From: Rhodospirillaceae bacterium
Lineage (GTDB): Bacteria; Pseudomonadota; Alphaproteobacteria; Rhodospirillales; UBA2165
Assembly: GCA_947467145.1 (NCBI GenBank)
Contig: CANIGJ010000003.1
Location: forward strand, 143,065-207,064
Reading direction: 5' to 3'
Length of the DNA stretch: 64,000 nt
The notes under the pieces are model-generated. The model did no database searches and had not been told where the DNA came from. It was given only the letters and a program-made list of their open reading frames with translations. Shown one piece after another: positions 1-24,867 of the stretch. Position numbers and translations under genes: made by a program. How positions within the stretch are numbered: the stretch's first letter is position 1; each line of letters starts with the position of its first letter.

Positions 1-556
1 TCGTACGGTTTTCGCGTGCCAGCCGCTGGTCGAGGGCTTCGCGCAACTTATGGAGGTAAAGCACGTCCGAGGCGGCATAATCGAGCTGTTCCTTGGTCAG
101 CTCGTCGCGGCCCCAATCGGAGCTTTGCTGCTGTTTGGACAGATCGACGCCGAGCATCTCGCCGCACAGATCCTTCAACCCATGCCGGTCGGTATAGGTG
201 CGGGTCAGGCGCGAGGCGATTTTCGTGCAATAGACCGGCTGGCAGACGATGCCCAGATATTGCGCGATGACGGCGATATCGAAGCGGCCGAAATGGAAAA
301 TCTTGGTGACCTTGGGATCGGCGAGCAGGGCTTTCAGGTTCGGGGCGGCATATTGGCCCGCCTTGAACTGCACGATATGGCCGACGCCGTCGCCCGACGA
401 TAATTGCATCAGGCACAGACGATCGCGCAGCGGATTGAGACCGAGGGTTTCGGTATCGATGGCGACGCTGTCGCCAAAACTCAGATCGGCTGGGATGTCG
501 CCCTGATAAAGTTTGACCTGAACGGGAATGGTCGTGCCCCTCGCGGCCGTTGCAAT
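1..556 (-). CDS. Ribonuclease D-like 3'-5' exonuclease (DEDD family), 3' end runs off the window
   Basis: The minus-strand frame is open to position 1, so it is absent from the ORF track. My translation: ..GTTIPVQVKLYQGDIPADLSFGDSVAIDTETLGLNPLRDRLCLMQLSSGDGVGHIVQF..KIFHFGRFDIAV..SDWGRDELTKEQLDYAASDVLYLHKL. It carries the DEDD exonuclease motifs (AIDTE, HFGRFD, YAASDV). There is no ATG, GTG or TTG in frame after the upstream TAA, so the start (529-556) is unresolved. Confidence 0.6.
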   Translation of the reverse strand, partial: MATAARGTTIPVQVKLYQGDIPADLSFGDSVAIDTETLGLNPLRDRLCLMQLSSGDGVGHIVQFKAGQYAAPNLKALLADPKVTKIFHFGRFDIAVIAQYLGIVCQPVYCTKIASRLTRTYTDRHGLKDLCGEMLGVDLSKQQQSSDWGRDELTKEQLDYAASDVLYLHKLREALDQRLARENRT

Positions 557-5836: not shown

Positions 5837-6556
5837 TTATTTTTTGCCGCTGCTTTTGGCTTTTTCTTGCGTCTTGTCGGGGGCGGCCCCTTTGCCTTGG
5901 GAGAACTGCTTCACCAGGTCGGCGCCGGCCTTGTCCATCTTGGACGCGGTATCGAAATCGCGTTTGGCGAGATCGGTTTTGCCCAGCTCATTGTAGATAT
6001 GGCCGCGGAAGGCATAGAGGAACGAATCCTTGCTGACCGTGCCGATGGCGACATTCAGATCGTTCAGCGCCTCAGGCAATTTGTCGATGGCATAAAGATT
6101 GAGGGCGCGCTGGCGGCGATATGCGCCGATATGCGGCGCCAGCTCGATCGCATAGTCGATGTCCTTCAGTGCCGAGCCCGCGAGATCGAGATCGAGTAGG
6201 GATTGCGAGCGAAGATTCAGAACGAGGGCGCGTGCCGCGCGGTTCAGCGGATCGTCGTCCTTCCTTTCCATGAGCTCGAAGGCTTTGGTGAAATCCTCGA
6301 CCGCCAAGGCGCTTTTCTTCAGCATGAAAAACGAATTGCCGCGCATGAAGAACAGATCGGCACGCTGCGCCTTGCTGCGCGTCGGCTTTTCCGTGTCTTC
6401 CTCGATGGCGAGGGCGAAATACATCGCCGCGCCTTCGTAGTCTTCCTTGGAAAACGCGACGCGGCCGCTTTGTTCGGGACTTTCGGTCTGGGCAATGGAC
6501 GGCGTGCCCGCTAGGGCGAGCAGGATCACGAGGAGAGTCGCTAAGAATTTTGTCAT
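5837..6556 (-). CDS. Secreted TPR-repeat protein
   Basis: ORF 5837..6811 trimmed to the ATG at 6556 (MTKFLATLLVILLALAGTPSIAQ, a signal peptide). It has repeated A..YF.LA/..A..D...AIEL TPR-like units and a Lys-rich tail. The ATG overlaps the stop of the upstream peptidase gene (ATGA). Confidence 0.65.
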   Translation of the reverse strand: MTKFLATLLVILLALAGTPSIAQTESPEQSGRVAFSKEDYEGAAMYFALAIEEDTEKPTRSKAQRADLFFMRGNSFFMLKKSALAVEDFTKAFELMERKDDDPLNRAARALVLNLRSQSLLDLDLAGSALKDIDYAIELAPHIGAYRRQRALNLYAIDKLPEALNDLNVAIGTVSKDSFLYAFRGHIYNELGKTDLAKRDFDTASKMDKAGADLVKQFSQGKGAAPDKTQEKAKSSGKK

Positions 6557-7923
6557 GCGAAGCGCGCTTTGATCGTCTCGAAACAGGCGCGCACGGTTTG
6601 CGCTTCGCCACCTTCGGGACGGCCCGGCCGGTTCGACTGGTTCCACGCGATCATGTCGACATGTGCCCACGGGATGTTGGGGCCGACGAATTCCTGCAGG
6701 AACAAGGCGGCGGTGATGGCGCCGGCGAAACCGCCTTCCGGTGCATTGGTGATGTCGGCGGTTTTGGCGTCGATCATCTTGCGATAGCCGGGCCACAGCG
6801 GCAGGCGCCACATCGGATCTTGCACGCGCAGGCCGTCCTTCAACAATTGATCGGCCAATACATCGTCGTTGCAGAAGAGTGCCGGAAGGTCTGCCCCCAA
6901 TGCGACGCGCGCCGCACCGGTGAGGGTCGCGAAATCGATCAGCAGATCGGGCTTCTCGCTGGAGGCTTCCGCCAATGCATCGGCCAGGATGACGCGGCCT
7001 TCCGCATCGGTGTTGCCGATCTCGATGGTCTTGCCGGAGCGCGCGCGGATGACATCAAGCGGCCGCACCGCATTGCCTGCGATGGCATTCTCGACCGCCG
7101 GGATCAGCACGCGTAGCCGCACCTTCAACCCTGCCGCCATGATGGCGTTAGCGAGTGCAAGGATATTCGCGCCGCCGCCCATGTCCTTCTTCATGTTCTT
7201 CATGCCCGACGCGGGTTTGATGTCGAGCCCGCCGGTATCGAAGCACACGCCCTTGCCGCAAAGCGTCAGCTTCGGCGCATCGGCATCGCCCCATACGATA
7301 TCGATCAGGCGCGGCGCTTCGGTGCTGGCGCGCCCGATGGCATGTATGGCGGGATAATTGTTCTTCAGCAGATCGTCGCCGACGATAGTGGAAAAGCCTG
7401 CGTTGTGACGACGCGCCAGATCGCCGGCCGCTTCGGCCAGTTCGGCCGGGCCCATATCCTCGGTCGGCGTGTTGATCAGGTCGCGCGCTAGCAGGATGCC
7501 ATCGAGCATCGCCTGCACGTCGTCCTTGGTGCTGGCCTTGGGCCACACCAGGCTAGCTTGCGGCGCGGCGGCTTCCTTGTAGCGGTCGAAGGCGTAGGCG
7601 CCGAGGCCCCAGGCAAGCGCCGCCCGGTTGGCGTCTTCGGCGCTCAACGCCGTCGTCAGTTCGTAGGTGCCCTTCGGCAGATCGCGCGAACCGTTGCCGA
7701 AGCTCCACATGCCGTCGGTCGCCGAGGTGCCGATCGCGGCGCCGGCGAGTTTGCCGTCCATGCCCGGGATCAGGCAGACCTTGCCCGAGCCGGCTTCGAA
7801 CCCGGTGGACTCGACCCAGGCTTTCGCCGGCCCGGGCAAACCGGATTTCCAATCGGCGAGCTTGTCCTTGCTCACCGCGTGCAGCGGAATGGCGCCCGTC
7901 GCGTTGTCGGTTAGAACTTTCAT
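6553..7923 (-). CDS. M17 family leucyl aminopeptidase (PepB-like)
   Basis: 456 aa with the M17 signature blocks GKGVCFDTGGLDIKP, MKKDMGGGA, NTDAEGRVILADAL and ATLTGAA. Confidence 0.85.
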   Translation of the reverse strand: MKVLTDNATGAIPLHAVSKDKLADWKSGLPGPAKAWVESTGFEAGSGKVCLIPGMDGKLAGAAIGTSATDGMWSFGNGSRDLPKGTYELTTALSAEDANRAALAWGLGAYAFDRYKEAAAPQASLVWPKASTKDDVQAMLDGILLARDLINTPTEDMGPAELAEAAGDLARRHNAGFSTIVGDDLLKNNYPAIHAIGRASTEAPRLIDIVWGDADAPKLTLCGKGVCFDTGGLDIKPASGMKNMKKDMGGGANILALANAIMAAGLKVRLRVLIPAVENAIAGNAVRPLDVIRARSGKTIEIGNTDAEGRVILADALAEASSEKPDLLIDFATLTGAARVALGADLPALFCNDDVLADQLLKDGLRVQDPMWRLPLWPGYRKMIDAKTADITNAPEGGFAGAITAALFLQEFVGPNIPWAHVDMIAWNQSNRPGRPEGGEAQTVRACFETIKARFA

Positions 7924-12488: not shown

Positions 12489-12764
12489 GACAAGACTCCA
12501 TCTTCGACAGCATCAAGAACGTCGCGCTTGACGAGCCGGGCAGAGCCGATCACGAGGTCAAAGAGGTTTGAGCCCGAAATACATCATGCTTCGTAAATTG
12601 AATTAAATAGGCGCGCACGAGCGAAGCGGTGGCGCGCGGCGTCAATGGCAACCGGCGCATTTTGATCGCCCTCGCTCGCGCCGATGCGTTGAGAATGTCA
12701 TCGTTCGATGCCACAATGTGCGCCGATCGCGGCGTCCCGGGCGTATTCGGGCAGGAGAGGACAA

Positions 12765-14018
12765 ATGAATAAAAGCAACGATGTACCGGCCCTGGTATTC
12801 AGCCATTTCGGGGTGTTCTGCCACGATGTGGCGGCGCTTGAGGATTTCTATACCCGGGTCATGGGCTTCGCGGTCAGCGATTGCGGCCATGTCCATGCCG
12901 GCCCGGTCGAATTCGACATGTCCTTCATGACGCGGCGCCCGTGGGAGCATCATCAGCTCGTCATCGCCGGCGGCCGACCGCAGGCTCTGCCCTCCACCGT
13001 CAACCAGATTGGCTTCCTGGCGCCGAGCCTCGCCGAATTGCGCCGTATCAAGGCGCGCCTGGAAAAAGAACCGGGCGTCACTGGTATCGAAGCGGCCGAT
13101 CACGGCATCTCCTGGACGCTGTATTTCGTCGATCCGCAGGGCAATCGCATCTCGGCGTCGGTGAACACCGGCTGGTATGTGCCGCAGCCGGCCTATTGGC
13201 CGCTCGATCTTGCCTGGACGGATTCTGAAATCGTCCGCCAGACCGAGGCGCAGTGCCGTGCCACCCCGGGCTTCATGAACCGCGATGCGTGGCGCGACGA
13301 GACGCACAAGGTGCTGGCGTCGATGAACCGTCTCGCCAGCCAAGCGACGCCGAGTGTCGATGCCAAGATCACCTCGACCGAAAGCGTGTTCCGCCGCCCG
13401 GTCGGTACGACCGCGCCGGCCGATGCGTTCCCGCGCCTCGCCATGCATCAGGTCGGCATCTATGTCGCCGACATGGACAAGCTGCAGGCGTTTTATGAAA
13501 AGACCTTGGGCTATCTCGTGACCGGCAAGGGCCGCCTGCCCGCCGTCGGCTCGCAACCGGCCGCCGACGTCGTGTATCTGACGCGCGATCCCAATCAGGT
13601 GGCGCAACTGATCTTGGTATCAGGGCGCGACGCCAAGGTGAAATCAAGCGTCAACCAGATCACTTTCCGCGTGCCCGATATCGCGACCTTGCGCGGCATC
13701 AATGAAGCGCTGCGCACGATCCCGGGCTGCGCCAATTTCCGCCCGATCAATCACGGCAATTCCTACTCGCTCTATTGCGACGATCCGGAAGGCAACGCGC
13801 TCGAGATTTCGTTCGAATCGGAATATTACATTCCGGCGCCGATCGCCTGGCCGCTCGATTTCGGCATGGACGATGCAACCTTGCTCAAGCATGTGTCGGA
13901 TCGTGTCCATGCAACGCCGGGCTTCATGCCGCGTGCCGAATGGAAGGCGCGCTCGCGCGCCGAACTTGTCGCTTCGGGCCGTATCGAGGCCGAAGACCTC
14001 GTCGAGCATCTGTATTAG
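12765..14018 (+). CDS. Internally duplicated VOC (glyoxalase/extradiol dioxygenase) family protein
   Basis: ORF 12708..14018 trimmed to the ATG at 12765, which follows GGAGAGGA. Two homologous halves each have a VOC-like module plus a conserved tail (Y[VI]P.P..WPLD....ATPGFM.R..W). Confidence 0.7.
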   Translation: MNKSNDVPALVFSHFGVFCHDVAALEDFYTRVMGFAVSDCGHVHAGPVEFDMSFMTRRPWEHHQLVIAGGRPQALPSTVNQIGFLAPSLAELRRIKARLEKEPGVTGIEAADHGISWTLYFVDPQGNRISASVNTGWYVPQPAYWPLDLAWTDSEIVRQTEAQCRATPGFMNRDAWRDETHKVLASMNRLASQATPSVDAKITSTESVFRRPVGTTAPADAFPRLAMHQVGIYVADMDKLQAFYEKTLGYLVTGKGRLPAVGSQPAADVVYLTRDPNQVAQLILVSGRDAKVKSSVNQITFRVPDIATLRGINEALRTIPGCANFRPINHGNSYSLYCDDPEGNALEISFESEYYIPAPIAWPLDFGMDDATLLKHVSDRVHATPGFMPRAEWKARSRAELVASGRIEAEDLVEHLY

Positions 14019-14021
14019 AAG

Positions 14022-14894
14022 ATGAGGATCGTCCGATACGCTCTCGGCAGTGAAGCACGACTTGGGTTGCTGCTGTCCGACGACCGAGTCGCCGAATTGC
14101 CAGGCAACGACGATCTCGTCGCCTGGCTGCAGGCCGGCAAGCCGACGCAAAGCGCGTTTGCGCGCCCGCTGGCCGATTGCAAGTTGCTGGCTCCGGTGGC
14201 GCGGCCCAGCAAAATCATTGCGGTCGGGCGCAACTACCGTTCCCACAATCGCGAAATGTCGGCCGGCGATGGGCGTTTCCCCAATGTCGTGCCATCGGCC
14301 TGGATCAAGGCGACATCGACTCTTGCGGGTGCCTTCGACGACGTTGTGAAACCGCGCGCGACCCAGAAACTGGATTACGAAACCGAGCTGGCCGTGGTCA
14401 TCGGCAAGCGCTGCCGTCATGTGCACGAAGACGACGCTGTTTCGGTAATCGCGGGCTATACCGTCGCGTCAGACATCACGGCGCGCGATGTCGTCGCCAT
14501 CGAACGGGCCGAGGGCAACCAGCTCCTGGGCAAGATGTTCGATACCTTCTGCCCGATGGGGCCCTGGTTCGTCACCGCCGACGAAGTTCCCGATCCCATG
14601 AACTTGTCCTTGATCACACGCGTCAACGGCGAAGTGCGTCAGGAGTCGAACACCGCCAACATGATCTGGCCGATTGCCAAACTGATCGCGTACGTCTCGC
14701 AGATGACCTTGGAAGCGGGCGATATCATCCTGACCGGCACGCCATCGGGCGTCGCCATGGGACGAAAGGCCGGCGACTGGTTCTTGCAGGCGGGCGACGT
14801 GTTGGAATCCGAACTCGGCGGTATCGGCGTCATGCGCAACCGCATCGTTGACGCTGCGGATCAGCCCACCAGTTGGGACTGGGCGAAGGCCTAA
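14022..14894 (+). CDS. Fumarylacetoacetate hydrolase (FAH) family protein
   Basis: 290 aa. KIIAVGRNYRSH, ELAVVIGK, ARD..., MIWPIAKLIAYVSQMTLEAGDIILTGTPSGV are the FAH-family C-terminal domain blocks. It starts 3 nt after the VOC gene. Confidence 0.85.
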   Translation: MRIVRYALGSEARLGLLLSDDRVAELPGNDDLVAWLQAGKPTQSAFARPLADCKLLAPVARPSKIIAVGRNYRSHNREMSAGDGRFPNVVPSAWIKATSTLAGAFDDVVKPRATQKLDYETELAVVIGKRCRHVHEDDAVSVIAGYTVASDITARDVVAIERAEGNQLLGKMFDTFCPMGPWFVTADEVPDPMNLSLITRVNGEVRQESNTANMIWPIAKLIAYVSQMTLEAGDIILTGTPSGVAMGRKAGDWFLQAGDVLESELGGIGVMRNRIVDAADQPTSWDWAKA

Positions 14895-15535
14895 GCGGCC
14901 GCCAGTTTCCGGCTCGAAAGTGCGCTGACCGCAATCACCAGTCCGATCGCCACCGCGTGGATGGCCAGATCGATCACGGTCACGTCGAACGGGTGGAAGA
15001 ATTGCAGCAGGAATGCGGCAATCCCGGCGACACCGAGACCGCCCATGGCGGCGACCGAGGCCGGGGCGAGCGGCTTCGCGTGCAGTAGCATCCACGACAA
15101 GACGAGACCGAGTGGGATGCTCGTGCCCAGCAGGATCAGGAAACATTCCGTGCTTTCGGCGAGATCGGTCGGCGTGCCCGCGATCCAGCCTTGCAGGCAA
15201 CCGAGCCCGGTGGTGGCCAACCATGTGGCCAGCGCGGGCAGGGGCAGCAGCGCCCAGGCGCGACTGCGATCGGGCAGGCTCATTTCGAACGCGGCCACGA
15301 CCGCCAGCAGGCCGGTCGCGAGCGTGGCGGTCAACTCGACCATCTGACGCACATCGTGCGCGCGGCCGATGAAGGCGGACGTATCGGCAAACGCGGCAAT
15401 TATGCCGCCGGACCCGATCGCCACGCAGCCCAGCCAGGCCGCCGCGCGCATCAGGGGATGGCGCAGGCGATGGACGGGCCCGGCATCGGCGCTCAGCCGC
15501 GCGATCAATTGATCGGTCGTATCACTCATCGTCAC
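14891..15535 (-). CDS. nrsF: NrsF family (DUF1109) membrane anti-sigma factor for sigma F
   Basis: 214 aa. The N-terminus DQLIARLSADAGPVHRL is followed by about 6 TM segments, with conserved Cys in GLGCLQGW and STECFLIL. The start overlaps the stop of the ECF sigma gene by 14 nt. Confidence 0.8.
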   Translation of the reverse strand: MTMSDTTDQLIARLSADAGPVHRLRHPLMRAAAWLGCVAIGSGGIIAAFADTSAFIGRAHDVRQMVELTATLATGLLAVVAAFEMSLPDRSRAWALLPLPALATWLATTGLGCLQGWIAGTPTDLAESTECFLILLGTSIPLGLVLSWMLLHAKPLAPASVAAMGGLGVAGIAAFLLQFFHPFDVTVIDLAIHAVAIGLVIAVSALSSRKLAAA

Positions 15536-16100
15536 CCCGACTTCCTTTCAGGCGCGCCCGCAGTGTTTTTATGGCGCGATGCACATTGACCTTGAGGGCC
15601 GCGATGGACTTGCCGCTGACCTGCGATGCTTCGCGCAGCGACAGGTCCCGCACCTTCAAAAGCTCAATGGCCTCGCGTTGTCCTTCGGGCAGGGCGGCAA
15701 TCGCGGCGCCTAGTCCGGAGGCTTGCACGGTCAGCTCCGTGTCCTTGTTCGCTCCAGGATCGGCAAAGGTTTCATAGGCGACGTCGTCCGCGGTCTCGAC
15801 CGCGGCAATCCGCCCGCGCCGCCGGATCGCATCGATCGACCGCCGCCGCGCGATGGTAGCCAACCAGGCATCGAACGGGCGGGCCGGATCGTAGGTATGC
15901 CGGACGCGATGCACCGTCAGCAGGACGTCCTGCACGACATCTTCGATGCGATCTCGGCGATGCTGGCGCGCGACCACGGTGCGGATGAAGGGCACGGCTG
16001 CGCGCAACAGCTGCTCATAGGCCGCGCGGTCGCCGTCCTGGGCGGCCTGCATCAGCCGCGACCAGTTTTCGCGATTTGTGTTGTCGCCCTGTGTAACCAT
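15522..16100 (-). CDS. sigF: ECF RNA polymerase sigma factor (SigF-type)
   Basis: ORF 15522..16295 trimmed to the ATG at 16100 (MVTQGDNTNRENWSRLMQAAQDGDRAAYEQLL..). It has region 2 (DVVQDVLLTVHR..FDAWLATIARRRSIDAIRRR) and region 4 (LPEGQREAIELLKVRDLSLREASQVSGKSIAALKVNVHRA). It is co-transcribed with nrsF. Confidence 0.85.
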   Translation of the reverse strand: MVTQGDNTNRENWSRLMQAAQDGDRAAYEQLLRAAVPFIRTVVARQHRRDRIEDVVQDVLLTVHRVRHTYDPARPFDAWLATIARRRSIDAIRRRGRIAAVETADDVAYETFADPGANKDTELTVQASGLGAAIAALPEGQREAIELLKVRDLSLREASQVSGKSIAALKVNVHRAIKTLRARLKGSRGDDE

Positions 16101-16117
16101 TCCCGAAACCACGCGAA
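16091..16117 (+). promoter_or_regulatory. Candidate ECF (sigma F-type) promoter upstream of the bufferin precursor gene
   Basis: TGTAACC (16091-16098) followed 15 nt later by CGAA (16114-16117), about 63 nt upstream of the bufA ATG. From memory, the Caulobacter sigma F promoter is GTAACC..CGAA-like. The consensus and spacing need checking. Confidence 0.4.
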
Positions 16118-16179
16118 CAAACAGATACGGGCGGCCATTCGGACGCCCGCGCAATGTCAGCATAACTGGAGAGACACAG

Positions 16180-16464
16180 ATGCAAAAGGTTTCCACCAAA
16201 GGCGCTCTGCTCGCCGCGTCCGCTTTCGCGACTTTCGCTGTGATGGCCGCCGTTTCGCCGTCCAAGGCCGGCCCCGCGCCGGAGCCGACCTTCAAGGCCG
16301 AGAAGTGCTATGGCGTCGCCGCCTCGGGCCAAAACGATTGCGCGTCGGCGGGCAGCAATTCCTGCGCCGGGACCGCGACCAAGGCGAGCGACCCGAAGGC
16401 CTGGATCTATGTGCCGGCCGGGACGTGCACCAAGATTCAGGGCGCCACTCTGAAGGCGATGTAA
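16180..16464 (+). CDS. bufA: DUF2282 / BufA1-type bufferin precursor peptide (Sec signal peptide + Cys-containing core)
   Basis: ORF 16078..16464 trimmed to the ATG at 16180, which follows TGGAGAGA. MQKVSTKGALLAASAFATFAVMAAVSPSKA is a signal peptide. The core EKCYGVAASGQNDCASAGSNSCAGTATKASDPKAWIYVPAGTCTKIQG has the four Cys in the DUF2282 pattern. Confidence 0.85.
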   Translation: MQKVSTKGALLAASAFATFAVMAAVSPSKAGPAPEPTFKAEKCYGVAASGQNDCASAGSNSCAGTATKASDPKAWIYVPAGTCTKIQGATLKAM

Positions 16465-16485
16465 TCGGATCGGTGCGGGGCGGTC

Positions 16486-17328
16486 ATGTTGGACACTTCG
16501 GCGGTACATGCTGGCGCTCTGGTCGGAATCGGCCTGCGCGGACCGCATCTGGTCGAATTGCCGCGACGCCGCCCCGCGCTCGATTTCGTCGAAGTCCATG
16601 CCGAGAACTATATGGATTTCGGGCCGGCGTTCGATCGACTGATGGACGTGCGGCGCGACTACCCCGTCAGTCTGCATGGTGTCGGACTATCGCTGGGCAG
16701 CGCCGATGGGCTCGATGCGCGACATCTCGCGCGCTTCCGCGATCTGATCGCGCGTATCGATCCGATTCTTGTCTCCGAACATCTCGCCTGGTGCATCGCG
16801 GGCGGCGTCTATCTGAATGATTTGCTGCCGCTTCCCTATACCGAAGAAGCGCTTGACCTCGTCGCGCGCAATGTTGCGCGGGCACAGGAGGCGCTCGGCC
16901 GTCGTTTGCTGGTCGAAAATCCGTCGCGTTATCTCAACTTCGCCCATTCGCCGATTCCCGAAGCGGAGTTCTTAGGCGCACTGGTGGTGCGCACCGGCTG
17001 CGCTATTCTCTGCGACATCAATAATATCGTCGTGAGCGCGCATAATGTCGGCGAAGACGCGAGCGCTTATCTTGAGAAACTGCCACGCGCAGCGGTGCAG
17101 GAAATTCACCTGGCGGGACATAGCGTTCAGTCGATCGATGGGCGAACCATCCTGATCGACGATCACGGATCGCCGGTCAGTGATGAGGTCTGGCGGTTAT
17201 ACGCGCGCGCCCGGCAGACATTCGGCGCCGTGCCGAGCTTGATCGAACGCGATCGCAATCTGCCGCCGCTCGATGAATTGTTGGCCGAAGCCGATCGCGC
17301 AAGAGTTGATCATGCTCTCGCTGCTTGA
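16486..17328 (+). CDS. bufB: DUF692 / MNIO (multinuclear non-heme iron oxidative) enzyme, BufB-type
   Basis: 280 aa with a TIM-barrel DUF692 pattern: GIGLRGPH...DFVEVHAENYM...LHGVGLSLGS...VSEHLAW...LVENPSRYL...DINNI.VSAHN...EIHLAGH...LIDDHG. It starts 21 nt after bufA. Confidence 0.88.
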   Translation: MLDTSAVHAGALVGIGLRGPHLVELPRRRPALDFVEVHAENYMDFGPAFDRLMDVRRDYPVSLHGVGLSLGSADGLDARHLARFRDLIARIDPILVSEHLAWCIAGGVYLNDLLPLPYTEEALDLVARNVARAQEALGRRLLVENPSRYLNFAHSPIPEAEFLGALVVRTGCAILCDINNIVVSAHNVGEDASAYLEKLPRAAVQEIHLAGHSVQSIDGRTILIDDHGSPVSDEVWRLYARARQTFGAVPSLIERDRNLPPLDELLAEADRARVDHALAA

Positions 17329-18082
17329 AATCCAAACGGCATTCGCCGGCGCCTTGTTATATGACGGCGCCGCCGATCTTGGGGACTGGCTGCGCGACGA
17401 CGGCATTGCCGCCACTGCGCGGATCGACATCTATCGCAACAATATGCAGGCCTCGCTGAGCGCGGCACTCGGCGAGATGTTCCCGGTCATCCGCCGTCTC
17501 GTCGGCGATGGCTTCTTTGCCTACGCGACCCATGAATTCGTCAGCCAGCATCCGCCGGTTTCGCCCTGCGTGGCCGATTACGGCGCGGGCTTCGCCGACT
17601 TCCTGTCTGCCTTTGCACCATGCTGTGAATTGCCCTATCTGCCTGATGTCGCGCGCTTCGAACGATTGCTGCACGACGCCGCGCGCTGTGCCGATGCGCC
17701 TCCACTCGATGCGTCGGCGCTCGCTGGGATCGACGCATCGGATGCTGGGCGTCTGGTTTTCACGCTCCAGCCGTCGCACGGCTATCTCTGTTCGCCGTGG
17801 CCGGTGACGGCGATCTGGCGCGTCAATCAGGATGGCCGCGATGGCGCGGTCGATCTGCAGGGTGGCGGCGTCCTGGTCGAGGTCTGCCGCCCCGACGGCA
17901 TTGTCGAGTTCCGTGAATTGCCTCCAGCGGATTTTGCCTTTCGCGCCGCGTTGGCCGGTGCCGCAACATTTGCCGATGCGCTGGTGGCCGCGTCCGATCG
18001 CGACGCCGCGTTCGATGTCGCCGCCGCCTTGGCCGAATTGTTGGCCGATCGCGCCATCACTGGCGTTCGGCTTATGGAGTGA
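17312..18082 (+). CDS. bufC: DUF2063 domain protein, BufC-type MNIO partner
   Basis: ORF 17273..18082 trimmed to the ATG at 17312 (MLSLLEIQTAFAGALL...IDIYRNNMQASLSAALGEMFPVIRRLVGDGFFAYATHEFVSQHPP). This is the conserved DUF2063 N-terminal region. It overlaps bufB by 17 nt. Confidence 0.8.
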   Translation: MLSLLEIQTAFAGALLYDGAADLGDWLRDDGIAATARIDIYRNNMQASLSAALGEMFPVIRRLVGDGFFAYATHEFVSQHPPVSPCVADYGAGFADFLSAFAPCCELPYLPDVARFERLLHDAARCADAPPLDASALAGIDASDAGRLVFTLQPSHGYLCSPWPVTAIWRVNQDGRDGAVDLQGGGVLVEVCRPDGIVEFRELPPADFAFRAALAGAATFADALVAASDRDAAFDVAAALAELLADRAITGVRLME

Positions 18083-18089
18083 AAGACCG

Positions 18090-18518
18090 ATGCCCAACTT
18101 AGCAACGCTGTTCGCCGATCTCGAACGATTCCCGCTGTCGATTCTGCAATTCCTGTTCAGAGTGTCGATCGGGTTGGTGTTCTGGTATTCGGGCCTGACC
18201 AAGATCGCGAGCTGGCCGACCACGATCCTTTTGTTCCGGGACGAATACGCCGTTCCGCTTCTGCCGCCGGAGCTCGCCGCGACCTTTGCGACCGCCGTTG
18301 AATTAAGCTGTCCGGTCCTGCTGCTCTTCGGATTGGCGACGCGTCTCGCGACCTTGCCGCTGATCGGCATGACCCTGGTGATCCAGATGTTCGTCTATCC
18401 GGAATCCTGGAGCGTCCATTTGATGTGGATGGCGATCTTGGTGTTCATCCTGACGCGTGGCCCGGGTGCGCTGTCGATCGATCATTGGATCGCGCGTTCG
18501 ATACGGCCGAACGTCTAA
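18090..18518 (+). CDS. DoxX family membrane protein (fourth gene of the bufferin-type operon)
   Basis: ORF 17832..18518 trimmed to the ATG at 18090. 142 aa with 4 predicted TM segments. FLFRVSIGLVFWYSGLTKI... is the DoxX N-terminal motif. It starts 7 nt after bufC. Confidence 0.8.
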   Translation: MPNLATLFADLERFPLSILQFLFRVSIGLVFWYSGLTKIASWPTTILLFRDEYAVPLLPPELAATFATAVELSCPVLLLFGLATRLATLPLIGMTLVIQMFVYPESWSVHLMWMAILVFILTRGPGALSIDHWIARSIRPNV

Positions 18519-18539: not shown

Positions 18540-19352
18540 TTAAGACGTGGTGCGTTTGCGCGGACGTTTCGGCGCGACCTTGGGATAATTGACGGCCGTT
18601 TGGTGCACGTGGTGACCCATCAGGTCGGCCGCTTCGGCGGCTTTGCCCTTTTCGATGAGCTGTAAAATCTGCTCGTGAATTTTCTGAATGCGTTTGCGCG
18701 CCGACAGCGTCAGCTCGACGTCGTCGCGCCGGGTCACCAGACGCAAGGCGCGAAACAGCGAACTCAACACCGGATTCTGCGTGCTCTTGGCGACGCAGAC
18801 ATGGAATGCAAGGCCGTTGTCCTGGAACGCATGTACGGAGCCGATCAGATCGGCGCCGTCCTGCACGATCGCATGTAACTCCTTGATATTGTCGGCAGTG
18901 CGGCGCTGGGCGGCGAGGCGGGCGGCCGTCATCTCGATGACATGTTGCATCTCGAATATCTGCGGCAGGTTCACATCCGCTAGTTTAAACTGTACCGCCA
19001 ACGCCTCGGCGAAACTGTCTGGGTGTCCTTCGGCGATCCAGGCCCCACCTTTCGCCCCTGAGCGAACCTCGATGATGCCAAGACCCTGCAGCGATTGCAG
19101 CGCCTCGCGTGCGGTGCGCCGCCCGACCTTGAATTTTTCTACAAGCGTACTTTCCGAGCCGAGAAAATCGCCGGGACGAAGCAGGTCCTCGAAAAGCTGG
19201 CTCTTGACGTGGGCGACAAGCGCATCCGACGCCCGAGATGACGATTGCGGTTCGAATTCGAGCGGCGAAGAGATCTTGGGGCGGCTTTTTCGCAAAGGCT
19301 GGGTCCGATGGCGACAACGATACGATTGGCGGAAACTATCGTGTTTTCGCAA
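18540..19352 (-). CDS. GntR/FadR family transcriptional regulator
   Basis: N-terminal wHTH LRPGDFLGSESTLVEKFKVGRRTAREALQSLQGLGIIEVRSGAKGGAWI plus an all-helical FCD-like C-terminal domain. The start is uncertain: TTG at 19352, or an in-frame TTG at 19292. Confidence 0.75.
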   Translation of the reverse strand: MRKHDSFRQSYRCRHRTQPLRKSRPKISSPLEFEPQSSSRASDALVAHVKSQLFEDLLRPGDFLGSESTLVEKFKVGRRTAREALQSLQGLGIIEVRSGAKGGAWIAEGHPDSFAEALAVQFKLADVNLPQIFEMQHVIEMTAARLAAQRRTADNIKELHAIVQDGADLIGSVHAFQDNGLAFHVCVAKSTQNPVLSSLFRALRLVTRRDDVELTLSARKRIQKIHEQILQLIEKGKAAEAADLMGHHVHQTAVNYPKVAPKRPRKRTTS

Positions 19353-19420
19353 ATATTCAAACGCTGGTCCGGGACGGCGACCCAGATTCAGCTAGTGTCC
19401 GTATTTGTCGCCTGCTAAAG

Positions 19421-19436
19421 ATGTCATATATGACAT
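19421..19436. promoter_or_regulatory. Perfect 16-bp palindrome ATGTCATATATGACAT, candidate GntR-family operator
   Basis: It reads identically on both strands. It contains the GT-N-AC core typical of GntR/FadR operators. It lies in the divergent intergenic region between the regulator and the Rieske oxygenase gene, just upstream of AAGGAGG (19444-19450). Confidence 0.45.
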
Positions 19437-19457
19437 ATATAAAAAGGAGGCCTCGTC

Positions 19458-20765
19458 ATGACGTCGGCGCGCGATAACGAAACTCTCACGTCGGTCGGTC
19501 CCGGCACACCGATGGGCGAATTGATGCGGCGCTATTGGGTTCCGGCTGCGCTCTCCAGCGAGGTGACCAAAGACGGCGATCCGTTGCGGCTTAAATTGCT
19601 ATGCGAGGACCTGATCGCGTTTCGCGATTCGTCAGGCCGCGTCGGCGTGATGGATCATCGCTGCCCGCATCGTTGTGCCTCCTTGTTCTTCGGGCGCAAC
19701 GAAGAAGGTGGTATCCGTTGCGTCTATCACGGCTGGAAGTTCGACGTCGACGGCAACTGCACCGACATGGCAAATGTGCCGCCGCACCAGGATTTCAAGC
19801 ACAAGGTTCATGCCAAGGCCTATCGCGCCGAAGAACGCGCTGGCCTAATCTGGGTCTATATGGGCGATCAGGCGCGCGTGCCGGCCCTGCCTGATCTGGA
19901 GGTGTTGCAACTGGACGCCGACGCGGTGGGAATCGATGTGTTTCAGCGCGAATGTAATTGGTTGCAGGCGCTCGAAGGCGACATCGATACATCCCACGTC
20001 GATTTCTTGCACGGCGGAACGCGTACGGTCGATGATTTTCCGCCGGACGATCCGCGCCGCTACGGCGCGATCCATCGCGATCCGGAATACACGATTGCGG
20101 AAACGGACTGGGGTACGATGTATGGCGCCCATCGCCCCGCCGATCAGGGACGGCGCTATTGGCGTGTCGCCCATTTCCTGTTTCCGTTTTGGACGATGAC
20201 GCCGGCAGGCGTTTTCGACACCTATATCCATGCGCGCGCCTGGGTGCCGATGGACGATCACCACACCATGGGCTTTGGTCTATCGAAAAAGGGATCGCGC
20301 CTGACGGCGATCGGCAACGCCAAGCAGGGCATTGCGCTTCACGTCGAGGAACGCTTACCCAATACCACCGACCGGTTCGGCCGGTGGCGCTTTGCTGCCA
20401 ACGCGCGCAACGATTACCGGATCGATCGCGCTGCCCAACAATCGCAAATCTATAGCGGCATCACCGGCATCACGCTGCAGGACCAGGCGATGACCGAAAG
20501 CATGGGAGAGGTCGTTGATCGTTCGCTGGAACATCTGGCGCCGAGCGATCGCATGATTGCCGTGACGCGCCGTCGGCTTTTGTTTGCTGCTCAAGCCTTG
20601 CAGAAAGACGCCGTGGCACCTCCCGGCGCCGATGAGCCCGGTGTGTTTCATGGCGCACGTGGCGGCTATTACCTGGCGCCGGAAAATGCCGAATGGCAGG
20701 ATTTTTATAAAGAAAGACTCACCTCGGTACGCCGCCAAGCCAGCTCCGCCGCAGCGGCGGAATAA
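19458..20765 (+). CDS. Rieske (2Fe-2S) non-heme iron oxygenase, alpha-only (phthalate/VanA/PobA-like family)
   Basis: Rieske motif CPHRCASLFFG...CVYHGWKF. The catalytic domain has NWLQALEGDIDTSHVDFLH (Fe ligands). No beta subunit follows. There is a strong RBS. Confidence 0.85.
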   Translation: MTSARDNETLTSVGPGTPMGELMRRYWVPAALSSEVTKDGDPLRLKLLCEDLIAFRDSSGRVGVMDHRCPHRCASLFFGRNEEGGIRCVYHGWKFDVDGNCTDMANVPPHQDFKHKVHAKAYRAEERAGLIWVYMGDQARVPALPDLEVLQLDADAVGIDVFQRECNWLQALEGDIDTSHVDFLHGGTRTVDDFPPDDPRRYGAIHRDPEYTIAETDWGTMYGAHRPADQGRRYWRVAHFLFPFWTMTPAGVFDTYIHARAWVPMDDHHTMGFGLSKKGSRLTAIGNAKQGIALHVEERLPNTTDRFGRWRFAANARNDYRIDRAAQQSQIYSGITGITLQDQAMTESMGEVVDRSLEHLAPSDRMIAVTRRRLLFAAQALQKDAVAPPGADEPGVFHGARGGYYLAPENAEWQDFYKERLTSVRRQASSAAAAE

Positions 20766-20808
20766 AGCAATAATCAAGTATAATCCTACAGGGAAGATCG
20801 GACCAACC

Positions 20809-22353
20809 ATGCTCACATTCGCATATCGACTGACGGTCTGCGCCGTCGCACTTGTCATGTCGGCGACACCGGGCTTCGCGCAGAAATCCAAGGATACCTT
20901 CCGCCAATTGCATGCGCAGGCGATTGCGACGCTCGATCCGTATCTCGATCCGCGGCCCGAAGTGTATTTCGCCAGCGAGATGCCGTTCGACCGATTGATC
21001 ATGCTGGACGAAGGGGCCGAGAAATTCGTCGGCAATCTTGCGCGATCCTGGGCCCGCCCCGATACCAAGACGATCGAGATGGAGTTGCGTGACGACGTCA
21101 CCTGGAGCGACGGACAGAAATTCACGGCGGACGACGTTATTTATACGCTGGGGTATCTGTCCAATCCGAAGTCGAATTTTCGCTTCGCGAGCGATTACGA
21201 CTGGATCGAGCGCGTCGAGAAGCTCGGGCCGCACAAGATTAGGATCGTCGCATCGCGTACTGTTCCTTACGACCTGGCGCGGCTAGGTGGATACACCTTT
21301 ATGTTTCCTCAGCACGTTCACGGGCCGCTTGAGTCCAAGCAGGATTTTGGCCGTGCTCCCGTTGGAACCGGCCCGTACAAAATCGTGCAGGTCGACAAGA
21401 ACACGGGAATTCGTGCGGAAAAGCGTACCGACCATGTCCACGCCAATAACGTAAAGAAGTCGCCATCGATTAAAAATGTGGTTCTGCGCGGTGTGCCGGA
21501 CCGGGGAACGCGCGTCGCCGAGCTTTTGGCCGGCAATGTTGATGCGATCCACGACGTCTCGCCCGATCAGGCCGAAGATTTGGCCAAGTCGCCGCAATTG
21601 GCCATGACGGTGACACTTCCCTTCGCCTATCAATACATGATGATCGATATGAAGGGGCGCAGCGGTGTGGCTCCGCTTAAGGACAGGCGCGTGCGGGCCG
21701 CGATACTGCACGCGATCGATCCGGAGGCGATCAACATAATGATCGGCGGAAAGTCCGTTAGCCTGACGCGCCCGCCGGCGCTGTGCCACCCGATGCAGCT
21801 TGGCTGCGACTATTCGCTCGAAACGCCGAAGTTCGACCGGGCGAAGGCGCGCGGCCTTTTGGCCGAGGCCGGCGTCCCATCCGGTTTCGACGTCGCGATC
21901 ACGACGAACAGTCTCGCCGGAAAGGATATCGCCGAGGTCGTGGCCGGTCAGCTGCGTGCGATTGGCATCCGCGCCAACGTCGACCCGCAAACCTTTGCCG
22001 CCTATCGCCAACTGCAGAGCGACGGCAAGATCAATATGATGATTTCTGGCTGGGGCGGCGGTGGGTTGCCAGATGTCGGCGGCACGCTTGATTTCCTGTT
22101 CGAGGGCGGCTCGCGCGATTATCACGGCGTGCCCGGTTGGGTTGAAGCCGCGCAGAAGGCCAACACTGAAAACGACGATCGGGCGCGACGCGCCATCGTG
22201 AAAAAACTTTTCGACGAGGTAACGACGGAAGGTTATATCGTGCCGATGGCGCCGATCCCGCGCTTTTGGATGCATACCCGTGAGGTCAAGATCGCGACGC
22301 CCAGCAGCTTCAATGCCTACGGTGCGGATGCATGGGGCTTTTCGTGGGAGTAG
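20809..22353 (+). CDS. ABC transporter substrate-binding protein, family 5 (peptide/nickel/opine type)
   Basis: ORF 20584..22353 trimmed to the ATG at 20809 (MLTFAYRLTVCAVALVMSATPGFAQ, a signal peptide). The length (about 514 aa) and the WSDGQKFTADDV.YT motif are typical of SBP_bac_5. There are no adjacent permease or ATPase genes. Confidence 0.8.
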   Translation: MLTFAYRLTVCAVALVMSATPGFAQKSKDTFRQLHAQAIATLDPYLDPRPEVYFASEMPFDRLIMLDEGAEKFVGNLARSWARPDTKTIEMELRDDVTWSDGQKFTADDVIYTLGYLSNPKSNFRFASDYDWIERVEKLGPHKIRIVASRTVPYDLARLGGYTFMFPQHVHGPLESKQDFGRAPVGTGPYKIVQVDKNTGIRAEKRTDHVHANNVKKSPSIKNVVLRGVPDRGTRVAELLAGNVDAIHDVSPDQAEDLAKSPQLAMTVTLPFAYQYMMIDMKGRSGVAPLKDRRVRAAILHAIDPEAINIMIGGKSVSLTRPPALCHPMQLGCDYSLETPKFDRAKARGLLAEAGVPSGFDVAITTNSLAGKDIAEVVAGQLRAIGIRANVDPQTFAAYRQLQSDGKINMMISGWGGGGLPDVGGTLDFLFEGGSRDYHGVPGWVEAAQKANTENDDRARRAIVKKLFDEVTTEGYIVPMAPIPRFWMHTREVKIATPSSFNAYGADAWGFSWE

Positions 22354-22360
22354 CTTGGCG

Positions 22361-22988
22361 TCAGCGCGTCGGCAGCACCTGGCCGACATAGGCCGAACAG
22401 CCGACGACGATGCCCATGGCGAGCATGTGAATCCCCCAATCGCCGAGATTCATTTCGAAGCCATGGAAAAACTGTAACAGGGCGACAGCCGCCGACGAGA
22501 TGGCCAAACCGGCCATGGCGGACGCCGACCAGCCGAGATGCGCGCGGTGGAGGCGGAGCAGTGGGAACAGCAGCAGGGCAATCGGGATGCTGGTCGCCAG
22601 GATGAACAGGAAGCAATCCGGGCTATGACCGTAGAGTAGCTGCTCGGCCGGCTTGTCGAGCGGAACGTCGATGCCAATAGCTCACCGTCAGGGCCTGCCA
22701 GACGACGAACAGCACGAGCGGGGTCACGCGCCACCGCAAGGTGCGCCCGCGGACATGGATGCGGAAGGCGGCGACCGCTGCGGCCGCGCTCGTCAGGACG
22801 GCGCCCAGCAATTCCAGCCGTTCTTCGGGGTCATGCAGGGCGCGATCGATCAGATGGGGCTTGGCGAAAAACAAGACGAACAAACCCGCCGCCCCGGCCA
22901 GCACAGCCAGAACGCTTAGGGCGCTTAACAGCGGCGCCGAGCCAACAAAAAGGGCAAGGGCGCCGGGGCGCTTGCCTGTCTCGCTCAA
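22361..22988 (-). pseudogene. Frame-interrupted orphan NrsF (DUF1109) paralog
   Basis: Two frames together align to the NrsF at 14891-15535. The upstream ORF (22623..22988) gives ..LELLGAVLTSAAAAVAAFRIHVRGRTLRWRVTPLVLFVVWQALTV. My translation of the frame that is open from 22681 down to the TGA at 22361 gives AIGIDVPLDKPAEQLLYGHSPDCFLFILATSIPIALLL...LLQFFHGFEMNLGDWGIHMLAMGIVV. A 1-nt shift is needed near 22680. Confidence 0.6.
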
Positions 22989-23082
22989 GTTGACGGTCTT
23001 TCTAAGATGAGGCCTGTCTAGACAGGAAAATAGCGACTCGGCCCAGCTTTGACGAGAGACGGATTACCCGGGGGTCGGGGGG

Positions 23083-23120
23083 CAAAACGAAAGCCCGCCA
23101 CTGGGGTCAGTGACGGGCTT
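23083..23120 (-). terminator. Rho-independent terminator downstream of the LigB-type dioxygenase gene
   Basis: Minus strand: AAGCCCGTCACTGACCCCAGTGGCGGGCTT followed by TCGTTTTG. The GC-rich stem-loop lies 26 nt after the stop at 23146. Confidence 0.6.
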
Positions 23121-23145
23121 CGGTTCGATCCGAGACGGTCTGCGG

Positions 23146-24162
23146 TTACTGCCAGGTGGCAAACGCCATGGCGTTGCCGGTGCCCGCTTCGGAGCGGTAG
23201 CACGGCACGTAATCGAGCAGGTTCATTTCGTAGTTCGTGGTCGACAGAACGCCCAAGGTCGCGATCCAGTTCTTGGTCTCCGACGTGCCCGAATTGAAGA
23301 TGATGTTGGGCTCGCTGATGATCGTCTTATAGTCGCGGGTCTGCATCGCCTTCAGCATCTTGCGGTCCCACGCCTCGTCGATGACGAAGTGCGACAGCCC
23401 ACCCGACGCCACGACCAGCACGCGCTTGTCGCTGTCCCACTTCTGGATGCCGCGGCTGATCGCCTGGCCCAGCTCGAAGCAGCGCTTCGGCGTCGGCTGG
23501 TTGGGCGGGAAGAAGGTGTTGATCAGCACCGGCACCAGCGGGATCGCCTTGTCCTTCAGGATGCGGCGATAGATGAAGGTGACCGCATGGCCGATGCCGC
23601 GCGGGCCTTCCGGGCCTTCCGGCACCTTTTCCGATGCGGTGACGTCGAATTCCGACTCCATGCATTCGGCGACGATGGTGTTGGCGAGATCGGGCACGCA
23701 GTCGTACCAGGTATCGACCGGTGTATGGCGCGACGCTTCGACGAGCTGCACCGCGGGGTCCTTGTGCGCGTGCTTGGCGGCTTCGTAGCCCGTGTTCAGC
23801 ACCTTGTCGCCGGAGAAGATCGAATAACTCGGCTGCACGTCGTCGAAGAACCATTCATGCTGGTCATCGCCGATCAGCACGATCACATCGGGTTTCATCT
23901 TCTGGACGGTTTCGCCCAGCTTATCGAGCGCCACCTGGCAGCGGTTGAACCGTTCGGCGCGCACGTCGGGCAGGATTTCCTTCTCGAAATGCTCCTGCTC
24001 GCTGTTGCGCTTGGCGAGTAGCTGCGGGAAATCGTACACGCCGCCGCGGAAATGGTGCTCTTTCAGGTTGCGGTCGAAATTGGCGCGCAGCGGCCATTGT
24101 TCCGCGGGGAGAATAAGCAGTGGCCCGTGGGACGATCCCATCCCGCCGACGATCTTTGCCAT
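23146..24162 (-). CDS. Class III extradiol ring-cleavage dioxygenase (LigB family)
   Basis: ORF 23146..24222 trimmed to the ATG at 24162, which follows AAGGAAAG. MAKIVGGMGSSHGP... and later VLVVASGGLSHF are LigB-family hallmarks. 338 aa. Confidence 0.75.
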   Translation of the reverse strand: MAKIVGGMGSSHGPLLILPAEQWPLRANFDRNLKEHHFRGGVYDFPQLLAKRNSEQEHFEKEILPDVRAERFNRCQVALDKLGETVQKMKPDVIVLIGDDQHEWFFDDVQPSYSIFSGDKVLNTGYEAAKHAHKDPAVQLVEASRHTPVDTWYDCVPDLANTIVAECMESEFDVTASEKVPEGPEGPRGIGHAVTFIYRRILKDKAIPLVPVLINTFFPPNQPTPKRCFELGQAISRGIQKWDSDKRVLVVASGGLSHFVIDEAWDRKMLKAMQTRDYKTIISEPNIIFNSGTSETKNWIATLGVLSTTNYEMNLLDYVPCYRSEAGTGNAMAFATWQ

Positions 24163-24309
24163 GACGCGACTTTCCTTTGAATGATTCTCAATAAGAGTTG
24201 GCGCAAAAAATGACAGGATCAACGAAGTCCGTCAATCGGCGGGCCTTGACCGCGATCAAGGCCGCCCGCGCGGCCTTGGCCCATGCTAGAGTCCTGAAAC
24301 TCTGGGGAT

Positions 24310-24867
24310 TTGGTCGTGCCTTTGTTCAATTCCATCGACCGTTATGGCGCTATGGCTCGGACCCTTCACTGGGCCACCGCGCTCCTGGTCGGGGCCGCTT
24401 GGCTGCTGGGGCAGATCGGCGAGGATATCGGCGGCCACGGCCCGCGTGCTGCGGGGCTTATCGCGCATGTCATGGTTGGCCTCGCCGTACTCGTGACGTT
24501 GACCCTACGCGTCGGCTGGCGCCTTATCGACACGCCGCCGCCGGCCGAGGCGACACCGCTTGGTTCTCTCGCGGATCGCGCCGCGGGCCTCGTCCATTAC
24601 CTACTGCTGTTTCTTCTGCTAGCCGCGCCCCTCGCCGGAGTGGCGTACCAGTTCGCGCGCGGTGAGCCGTTGTACCTGTTCGGATTTGCCGAGATCGCCT
24701 CGCCCCTGACTTTGTCGCGCGATGTCGCGCGCGGCATCAAGGAACTGCATGAGGCTTTTGCCAACGCGCTCCTGGTCCTGGCATTGCTGCACGCGCTGGC
24801 GGCGCTGGGTCATCATTGGATCTTGCGCGACCGCGTGCTGAAGCGGATGTGGCCGTTTTCCGATTGA
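24310..24867 (+). CDS. Cytochrome b561 family protein
   Basis: 185 aa with 4 TM segments. The conserved His positions are RTLHWATALLV, AHVMVG, HEAFANALLVLALLHALAALGHH. Confidence 0.75.
   Translation: MVVPLFNSIDRYGAMARTLHWATALLVGAAWLLGQIGEDIGGHGPRAAGLIAHVMVGLAVLVTLTLRVGWRLIDTPPPAEATPLGSLADRAAGLVHYLLLFLLLAAPLAGVAYQFARGEPLYLFGFAEIASPLTLSRDVARGIKELHEAFANALLVLALLHALAALGHHWILRDRVLKRMWPFSD

Follow-up and report, generated by a model that had tools for sequence, protein, structure and literature searches.

Does a compact locus of a small Cys-containing peptide gene, three genes of DUF692, DUF2063 and DoxX families and a sigma/anti-sigma pair make a metal-binding peptide, and what would switch it on? 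The question is raised by positions 14891-18518 of a 64-kb window (the whole stretch of 64,000 nucleotides (nt) analysed here, part of contig CANIGJ010000003.1), where a first-pass annotation had placed a bufferin-class metallophore operon under sigma F/NrsF control. We consider it very probable that the locus is a biosynthetic gene cluster for a Buf1-type bufferin (captophorin) governed by an extracytoplasmic function (ECF) sigma-F/NrsF switch; as far as sequence can tell, the earlier claim is supported by the gene families, a profile specific for the bufferin maturase BufB, conserved residues and a promoter motif. The gene identities, the conserved catalytic and substrate residues, the fold of the partner protein and the co-occurrence of promoter motif and sigma gene are established.

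Four genes, bufABCD, lie on the plus strand, divergent from nrsF and an ECF sigma gene on the minus strand (Table 1). The six-frame list of open reading frames (ORFs) bears out the tight packing of the four co-directional genes reported earlier, with spacings of +21, −17 and +7 nt; bufD, which begins 7 nt after bufC, completes the core operon. Here bufA was taken from an internal ATG of a longer GTG-initiated ORF, and bufC from the ATG with which it overlaps bufB by 17 nt. The same four buf genes were called on public contigs carrying identical DNA. The GC content across the locus (61-67%) is slightly above that of the flanks (57-62%).

Table 1. Coordinates of the bufferin locus and of related features elsewhere in the window
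Feature	Position	Strand	Remarks
nrsF, NrsF/DUF1109 anti-sigma factor, six-transmembrane type	14891-15535	-	Pfam NrsF; longest ORF, from GTG at 15535, 214 amino acids (aa)
nrsF, probable ATG start	15529	-	212 aa; from public gene calls and the N terminus of the Caenispirillum (L001) orthologue
ECF sigma factor, SigF-like	15522-16100	-	192 aa from ATG 16100; alternative ATG 16163 gives 213 aa
Sigma-F-type promoter motif GTAACC-N15-CGAA	16093-16117	+	Exact match; 3' end 62 nt before the bufA ATG
bufA, bufferin-1 precursor	16180-16464	+	94 aa, DUF2282/BufA1
bufB, MNIO (DUF692) bufferin maturase	16486-17328	+	280 aa
bufC, DUF2063 partner protein with C-terminal alpha/beta domain	17312-18082	+	256 aa
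bufD, DoxX-family membrane protein	18090-18518	+	142 aa
NrsF-like paralogue, frameshifted, probable pseudogene	22373-22988	-	Frame of N-terminal part, ORF 22623-22988; frame of C-terminal part, 22373-22627
Second sigma-F-type motif GTAACC-N16-CGAA	23124-23149	-	Exact match; overlaps the stop codon of the LigB-like gene 23146-24222

All six products were assigned by profile searches. The identities proposed earlier for the four buf genes proved right, each match lying well above its Pfam cut-off: DUF2282 in BufA (79 bits, cut-off 22.4), MbnB_TglH_ChrH, formerly DUF692, in BufB (328 bits, cut-off 25), DUF2063 in BufC (80.8 bits, cut-off 27.2) and DoxX in BufD (64.5 bits, cut-off 23.6). The anti-sigma factor matches NrsF over residues 14-211 (49.8 bits, cut-off 26.8); the sigma factor matches Sigma70_r2 (47.6 bits, cut-off 24) and Sigma70_r4_2 (35.8 bits, cut-off 25.7), as well as the NCBIfam profile sigma70-ECF (77 bits, cut-off 42.9). 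Judged from these profile matches, such a six-family combination is not one that chance could produce.

Two gene starts need comment. The earlier description of a divergent sigma/nrsF pair that is translationally coupled stands; the overlap of 14 nt given there applies to the longest nrsF ORF, and shrinks to 8 nt with the ATG at 15529. The shorter overlap is the more likely one, since this ATG is chosen by the gene caller on identical contigs and agrees with the start of the orthologue in L001, a related locus in a metagenome-assembled genome (MAG) of Caenispirillum bisanense; the two genes are translationally coupled with either start. The start of the sigma gene is, from the sequence, ambiguous between ATG 16100 and ATG 16163, homology favouring the former. 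Gene calls on public contigs with identical DNA use ATG 16163 (213 aa), which would leave the divergent genes 16 nt apart and put the bufA promoter motif inside the sigma coding sequence. We favour ATG 16100 because the sigma ORF of L001 cannot be extended further upstream and its N terminus aligns with the Met at 16100, and because family members are 179-189 aa long (179 aa in Caulobacter, 189 aa in Burkholderia glumae).

The closest studied counterpart is the buf1 operon of Caulobacter vibrioides (CCNA_03363-03366, i.e. CC3254-CC3257) with sigF-nrsF (CC3253-CC3252). The earlier claim of an identical arrangement holds: the same six gene families are present, and the products of CC3252-CC3257 (214, 179, 93, 280, 254 and 150 aa) nearly match those of the window (212-214, 192, 94, 280, 256 and 142 aa). 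[quoted passage not shown] The Caulobacter system has been studied experimentally, whereas the host of the window, an uncultured Rhodospirillales-like alphaproteobacterium, is known from metagenomes alone. No buf2 cluster was detected in the 64-kb window by tblastn.

The precursor BufA had been described as a 94-aa secreted Cys-containing peptide with a DUF2282 pattern, and its profile score, its four invariant Cys residues and a Sec-like leader recognized by heuristics agree with this. With its DUF2282/BufA1 match and a length within 80-120 aa, BufA falls among Buf1 precursors; PF10048 was carried by all 3487 BufA homologues. Residues C43, C54, C62 and C83 are invariant in a 62-sequence alignment, as are the EKCYG and NDC motifs, and the Cys residues of the core are spaced (11/8/21) identically to those of Caulobacter BufA1 (Cys12/23/31/52). 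The predicted Sec leader comprises residues 1-30 (16180-16269): a basic n-region (K3, K7), a hydrophobic stretch at residues 8-25 with 11-residue Kyte-Doolittle means up to 2.2, and a cleavage-type site SKA|G, while family conservation begins at P32. Cleavage after A30 would leave a core of 64 residues, in which Cys occupies positions 13, 24, 32 and 53. In Caulobacter Buf1, CysII and CysIII each carry a −4.03 Da modification, and CysI and CysIV form a disulfide (PMC11626156). For the window peptide, the monoisotopic mass of the core is 6348.01 Da unmodified, and 6337.93 Da (−10.08 Da) is predicted for the mature form. An AlphaFold model built from the 62-sequence alignment has strands at residues 40-44 and 75-79, with a predicted local distance difference test score (pLDDT) of 77-87 in most of the core; these strands are compatible with the two-stranded sheet described for Caulobacter BufA1 (PMC11626156). 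A search of the PDB with BufA returned no homologue by sequence and none by fold (best E 6.6). A Shine-Dalgarno-like GGAGAG, read from the sequence, lies at 16168-16173 on the plus strand, 6 nt before the bufA ATG.

The assignment of BufB goes beyond the broad enzyme family. BufB passes the NCBIfam equivalog NF050167 (MNIO_BufB, 'MNIO family bufferin maturase') with 358.5 bits against a cut-off of 310, and fails the other MNIO equivalogs of that collection: HvfB (231 bits, cut-off 360), ApyH (82, cut-off 400), MbnB (TIGR04159; 76.7, cut-off 325) and ChrH (30, cut-off 600). Its sequence matches in the PDB are 3BWW (E 4e-35), three MbnB structures and 8HCI_D, the DUF692 chain of a TglHI entry. 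The iron site of MbnB is formed by His54, His90, Glu133, Asp163, Asn166, His192, Asp208, His210 and Glu239; eight of these residues are described as ligands, with Asp208 added at the third site (PMC9060507). All nine are conserved in BufB, as H64, H99, E144, D177, N180, H208, D225, H227 and E254. The last was located from the gapped alignments with 7FC0 and 3BWW, in which the ERD motifs coincide; the end of the ungapped 7TCR alignment is shifted by 2. Thus, the iron-ligand residues, on which the first-pass annotation had staked the enzyme assignment beforehand, are all present.

BufC shows its kinship at the fold level only. By sequence, a search of the PDB gave a spurious SDR match alone (E 0.055). 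An AlphaFold model based on 67 homologues (mean pLDDT 93, predicted template modelling score 0.88) was compared with the PDB by Foldseek; the top matches, with probability 1.00 over 229-273 columns, were 3DEE (NGO1945, a DUF2063 protein of Neisseria gonorrhoeae) and, from the TglHI holoenzyme, chain A, which is presumably the partner TglI. The 3DEE protein is cited as an MNIO partner, 'PME1' (PMC13097082). With these structural neighbours, BufC is an MNIO partner protein and not a transcription factor. The membrane protein BufD scores 56.2 bits with the NCBIfam HvfX family, under the cut-off of 80.

In one metagenome contig (L022) that is otherwise identical to the window, bufB lacks 1 nt close to its end (TTGGCC to TTGCC), at about 2020-2030 of the contig, corresponding to about 17283 of the window. 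The deletion fuses bufB and bufC into one 531-aa ORF (P0010), which may reflect either a natural fusion of enzyme and partner or a fault in the assembly.

Control by the sigma factor was approached through the published binding sequence of Caulobacter sigma-F, GTAACC-N16-CGAA (PMC3511200). Exact GTAACC-N15-17-CGAA matches occur twice in the window, with 0.07 expected; one of them lies upstream of bufA, and the last base of its −35 hexamer (16098) overlaps by one base the sigma start codon (16100-16098 on the minus strand). We compared nine related loci, the window included, and found the motif in six, each with a sigma gene. Outside the window it precedes bufA, with a spacer of N15-N16 and at most one mismatch, in five loci that all have a sigma gene nearby: L001 (N16), L003, L004 (one mismatch), L009 (Luteibacter) and L026 (a B. 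glumae plasmid). It is absent before bufA in L002 and L006, where no sigma gene was detected nearby, and in L025, where the sigma gene was not looked for. That motif and sigma gene occur together in alpha-, beta- and gammaproteobacteria is our strongest evidence on this point, and suggests that the sigma factor drives bufABCD. The control by sigma F/NrsF proposed earlier thus finds an NrsF/ECF pair in place and, by sequence match, a candidate promoter with a 15-nt spacer. A scan for generic sigma-70 promoters and terminators gave nothing above the shuffled background.

The anti-sigma factor has features that could serve in sensing. A HMMER search with NrsF among 1.8 billion representative sequences returned 670 relatives, and 122 diverse full-length ones were aligned. 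Just two Cys columns are conserved in these 122 sequences, C113 (93%) and C131 (100%), which stand 18 residues apart and flank one loop; H181 is conserved in 93%, and the window protein has all three residues. In Caulobacter NrsF, also 214 aa long, the conserved Cys residues were named C131 and C181, and both were mutated (Kohler et al. 2012). The mutagenic primer for the Caulobacter 'C131' has the context S-S-C-P, which agrees with the second conserved Cys column, that of C131 in the window protein; the primer context of 'C181' could not be placed on the window NrsF, where position 181 is the conserved His.

From the Caulobacter system and related work we infer, by analogy, the peptide chemistry, export, copper binding and inducing signal. 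In Caulobacter, BufB1 and BufC1 are necessary and sufficient for the formation of two thiooxazoles; the DoxX protein is dispensable for modification and function, export proceeds by Sec, and buf1 is copper-induced and copper-protective (PMC11626156). The 5-thiooxazole assignment is supported across MNIO-PME1 clusters (PMC13097082). In the window organism, the membrane anti-sigma factor NrsF would keep the sigma factor inactive until envelope stress, most likely an excess of copper or another thiophilic metal, perturbs the Cys113/Cys131 (and His181) face of NrsF. Once freed, the sigma factor would start transcription of bufABCD at the GTAACC-N15-CGAA promoter. BufB, an iron-dependent oxidase, would act with BufC in the cytoplasm to oxidise Cys54 and Cys62 of BufA, by four electrons each, to 5-thiooxazoles. 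BufA would then be exported by Sec and lose its leader of ∼30 residues, and Cys43 and Cys83 would form a disulfide. The folded 64-residue peptide would stay in the periplasm, chelate copper through its thiooxazoles and buffer metal stress, with BufD (DoxX) as an accessory membrane protein.

Several observations weigh against this scheme. No sigma-F-type motif was found on the minus strand before the sigma gene itself, even with up to two mismatches, while Caulobacter sigF has such a motif though it is weakly autoregulated; and the spacer of the bufA promoter is 15 nt long compared with the canonical 16 nt of Caulobacter. The signal peptide of BufA was assigned by hydropathy and motif heuristics alone, and the BufA model is moderately confident (mean pLDDT 69.8), so that Cys-Cys distances are unreadable from it. 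The neighbours are aromatic-catabolism genes, with neither copper genes nor other metal-resistance genes adjoining the locus. Finally, the stress to which SigF/NrsF systems answer varies with the bacterium: in Caulobacter it is chromate and cadmium (PMC3511200), in Azospira it is chlorite or hypochlorite (PMC4436054), so copper as the trigger is an extrapolation. This last point leads to the sole serious rival, in which the same machinery would respond mainly to another signal or metal (cadmium, chromate, gold or a reactive chlorine or oxygen species) and the peptide would buffer some metal besides copper or scavenge an oxidant. We regard it as unlikely, though worth keeping in view. In its first description Caulobacter sigma-F was a chromate/cadmium regulator (PMC3511200), gig operons are gold- and cadmium-induced in other species (PMC11626156), and other metals are hinted at by MerC-bufferin fusions (PMC12452194) and by a mer operon beside buf1 on B. 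glumae plasmids. However, where tested, Cu induced buf1 whereas Fe, Zn and Mn did not, and buf1 protected against both Cu(II) and Cu(I) (PMC11626156); Cu is bound by all characterised thiooxazole peptides (PMC13097082); and the regulon of Azospira consists of yedYZ-mrpX, without buf genes (PMC4436054).

The other rivals have far less to recommend them. The homology of BufB to MbnB, with the iron-site residues kept, and the initial assignment of an oxazolone/thioamide structure to related MNIO products (oxazolin, MovA) (PMC13097082) would allow the Cys modification to be the isomeric oxazolone/thioamide of methanobactin instead of a 5-thiooxazole. We hold this to be very unlikely: BufB falls far short of the MbnB equivalog, and the 5-thiooxazole is favoured by nuclear magnetic resonance data on Caulobacter Buf1 (PMC11626156), by alkylation-assisted heteronuclear multiple bond correlation on three MNIO-PME1 products (PMC13097082), by a selective-labelling preprint (10.64898/2025.12.15.693703) and by the bufferin absorbance at ∼305 nm and not at 340/390 nm. 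That the cluster is silent or a decaying relic in the window organism is a most improbable reading; it could draw on an orphan NrsF paralogue 4 kb away that is frameshifted in all assemblies, and on the sigma operon, for which neither a sigma-F motif nor a sigma-70-like promoter was found, but none of the six ORFs is disrupted and the catalytic and substrate residues are conserved, the six genes are identical on several independent contigs, and bufA is preceded by a good ribosome-binding site and, further upstream, by an exact match to the promoter motif. [quoted passage not shown] Older database names do read 'Predicted integral membrane protein (DUF2282)' and 'Putative DNA-binding domain', and those at JGI and RefSeq are similar; yet BufA has no hydrophobic stretch beyond its N-terminal leader, the structural neighbours of BufC are MNIO partners and not transcription factors with shown DNA binding, and BufB and BufC modify BufA in the Caulobacter in vitro reconstitution (PMC11626156). 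The first-pass annotation had expected standard pipelines to name these genes as DUFs. This is true of the RefSeq plasmid annotation in the 2024 PLSDB release, where the B. glumae genes are listed as DUF2282, DUF692, 'putative DNA-binding domain-containing' and DoxX proteins; it is now outdated, with PF10048 named 'BufA1' and PF09836 'HvfC_N' in current Pfam (precomputed labels on public contigs) and a BufB equivalog in NCBIfam 20.0.

The Buf1 assignment can be set against the other known systems with related parts. The gig operons of Cupriavidus metallidurans, Legionella and Bordetella belong to the same DUF2282-DUF692-DUF2063-DoxX class (PMC11626156); their regulators vary by species, e.g. 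BvgAS in Bordetella, whereas the window has an NrsF-type ECF pair. Buf2 (BUF_6/12Cys) and the EGKCG captophorins (oxazolin/HvfA, fontiphorin, gonophorin) share with the window an MNIO and a DUF2063-type partner, and likewise use Sec-exported Cys precursors, 5-thiooxazole chemistry and Cu binding (PMC11626156, PMC13097082). The window precursor, however, has four Cys and no EGKCG repeats, while Buf2 precursors have 6 or 12 Cys; and sigma and NrsF genes are typical of Buf1 and not found in Buf2 clusters, which often lack DoxX as well (PMC12452194). Membership in Buf2 was rejected, the window precursor scoring 25.5 bits with BufA2 (cut-off 60), as expected for a four-Cys Buf1-type peptide. The HvfA/oxazolin group was rejected with HvfB at 231 bits (cut-off 360), HvfC at 43.3 (cut-off 142) and HvfX at 56.2 (cut-off 80).

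Methanobactin biosynthesis (MbnABC) shares the TIM-barrel multi-iron enzyme with the same metal-site residues and a Cys-derived heterocycle for Cu binding. MbnA, though, is a short leader-core peptide secreted as a chalkophore, while the window precursor is a 94-aa predicted Sec substrate, periplasmic by analogy; the methanobactin product carries oxazolone/thioamide groups, that of the window, again by analogy, thiooxazoles. Membership in this group was rejected on the MbnB score of 76.7 bits (cut-off 325), the resemblance of the partner to 3DEE/TglI (MbnC, 7DZ9_C, gave merely E 4.8) and the DUF2282 precursor. On the regulatory side, SigF/NrsF-yedYZ-mrpX of Azospira suillum and EcfF/OsrA of Bradyrhizobium have, as in the window, an NrsF-type six-transmembrane anti-sigma factor gene overlapping an ECF sigma gene, the pair being divergent from a target operon with a similar promoter motif (PMC4436054). 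There, reactive chlorine or oxygen species act as the signal, and the controlled operon codes for a methionine-rich peptide and a methionine sulfoxide reductase; in the window the target is bufABCD.

How widespread is the locus? Thousands of such clusters have already been catalogued, the sigma/NrsF-linked layout included (PMC11626156, PMC12452194), and the window locus is an ordinary, intact member of the described bufferin 1 family. The nearest locus in a species-representative genome is L001, whose BufB is 68% identical; it has the same nrsF-sigma/bufABCD layout and the same upstream gene for an FAH-family hydrolase, with protein identities of 53-78% (NrsF 69%, sigma 74%, BufD 71%). The exact window proteins occur on several metagenome contigs of up to 375 kb, where the locus is intact and identical; the closest named relative of BufC comes from a 'Rhodospirillales bacterium' MAG. 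A megablast search of the window DNA against plasmids gave no match, and thus there is no evidence of this locus on a known plasmid. BufB homologues are encoded on 504 PLSDB plasmids. On those of B. glumae, among them NZ_CP100267.1 (67948-71782, our L026), the order is sigma-nrsF-bufABCD with all genes co-directional, and a merR-merC-merA operon follows ∼0.8 kb downstream, past one DUF4148 gene.

Another locus, L009 (1103-3599, Luteibacter sp. CQ10), has tandem buf-like clusters, bufABCD followed by a second bufB/bufC pair. It carries three sigma-F-type motifs: one facing the sigma gene, one before bufA and one between bufD and the second cluster.

In the window, the buf locus is flanked (12708-14894 and 18540-24867) by genes for the catabolism of aromatic or lignin-derived compounds: a two-domain glyoxalase/dioxygenase, a GntR/FCD regulator, a LigXa-like Rieske oxygenase, a family-5 solute-binding protein, a LigB-type dioxygenase and a cytochrome b561. 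The end of the FAH-family hydrolase gene overlaps the end of nrsF by 4 nt.

The second exact motif of the window (Table 1) lies upstream of an orphan NrsF paralogue, and a hairpin followed by a T-run stands directly downstream of the motif. The paralogue was detected by tblastn with NrsF as two segments in different frames (combined E 1e-14); neither half has a Pfam match. The frameshifted DNA is identical in three independently assembled contigs, and thus the frameshift is not a one-off assembly error. In L001, two intact extra NrsF paralogues follow bufD directly (6033-6728 and 6794-7414, both on the minus strand), the former being the intact orthologue of the frameshifted copy, and a motif GTAACC-N17-CGAA is located at 7583-7609 on the minus strand, ∼170 nt upstream of the distal paralogue. 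From its sequence, the motif at 23124-23149 may belong to the same regulon as bufA. It is conceivable, though doubtful, that the sigma-F regulon of this lineage includes orphan NrsF paralogues, each behind its own GTAACC-N16/17-CGAA motif, as a layer of anti-sigma feedback or signal integration; the idea is speculative, and no such layer is described for SigF/NrsF in the literature cited here. If it were true, sigma-induced NrsF paralogues would set the threshold or duration of bufferin production, and the genome of the window would be losing that layer.

These paralogues behind sigma-F-type motifs are a mildly new angle; otherwise the locus opens no new question. It supports naming the genes bufA-D and sigF-nrsF rather than DUFs, and it yields concrete predictions for the mass of the core, the modified residues and the position of the promoter. 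The largest of the MNIO-RiPP families gains a further intact example through it, whose host is an uncultured Rhodospirillales-like alphaproteobacterium, and the locus confirms that well beyond Caulobacter the Buf1 layout is conserved in its sigma-F/NrsF-linked form, promoter motif included.

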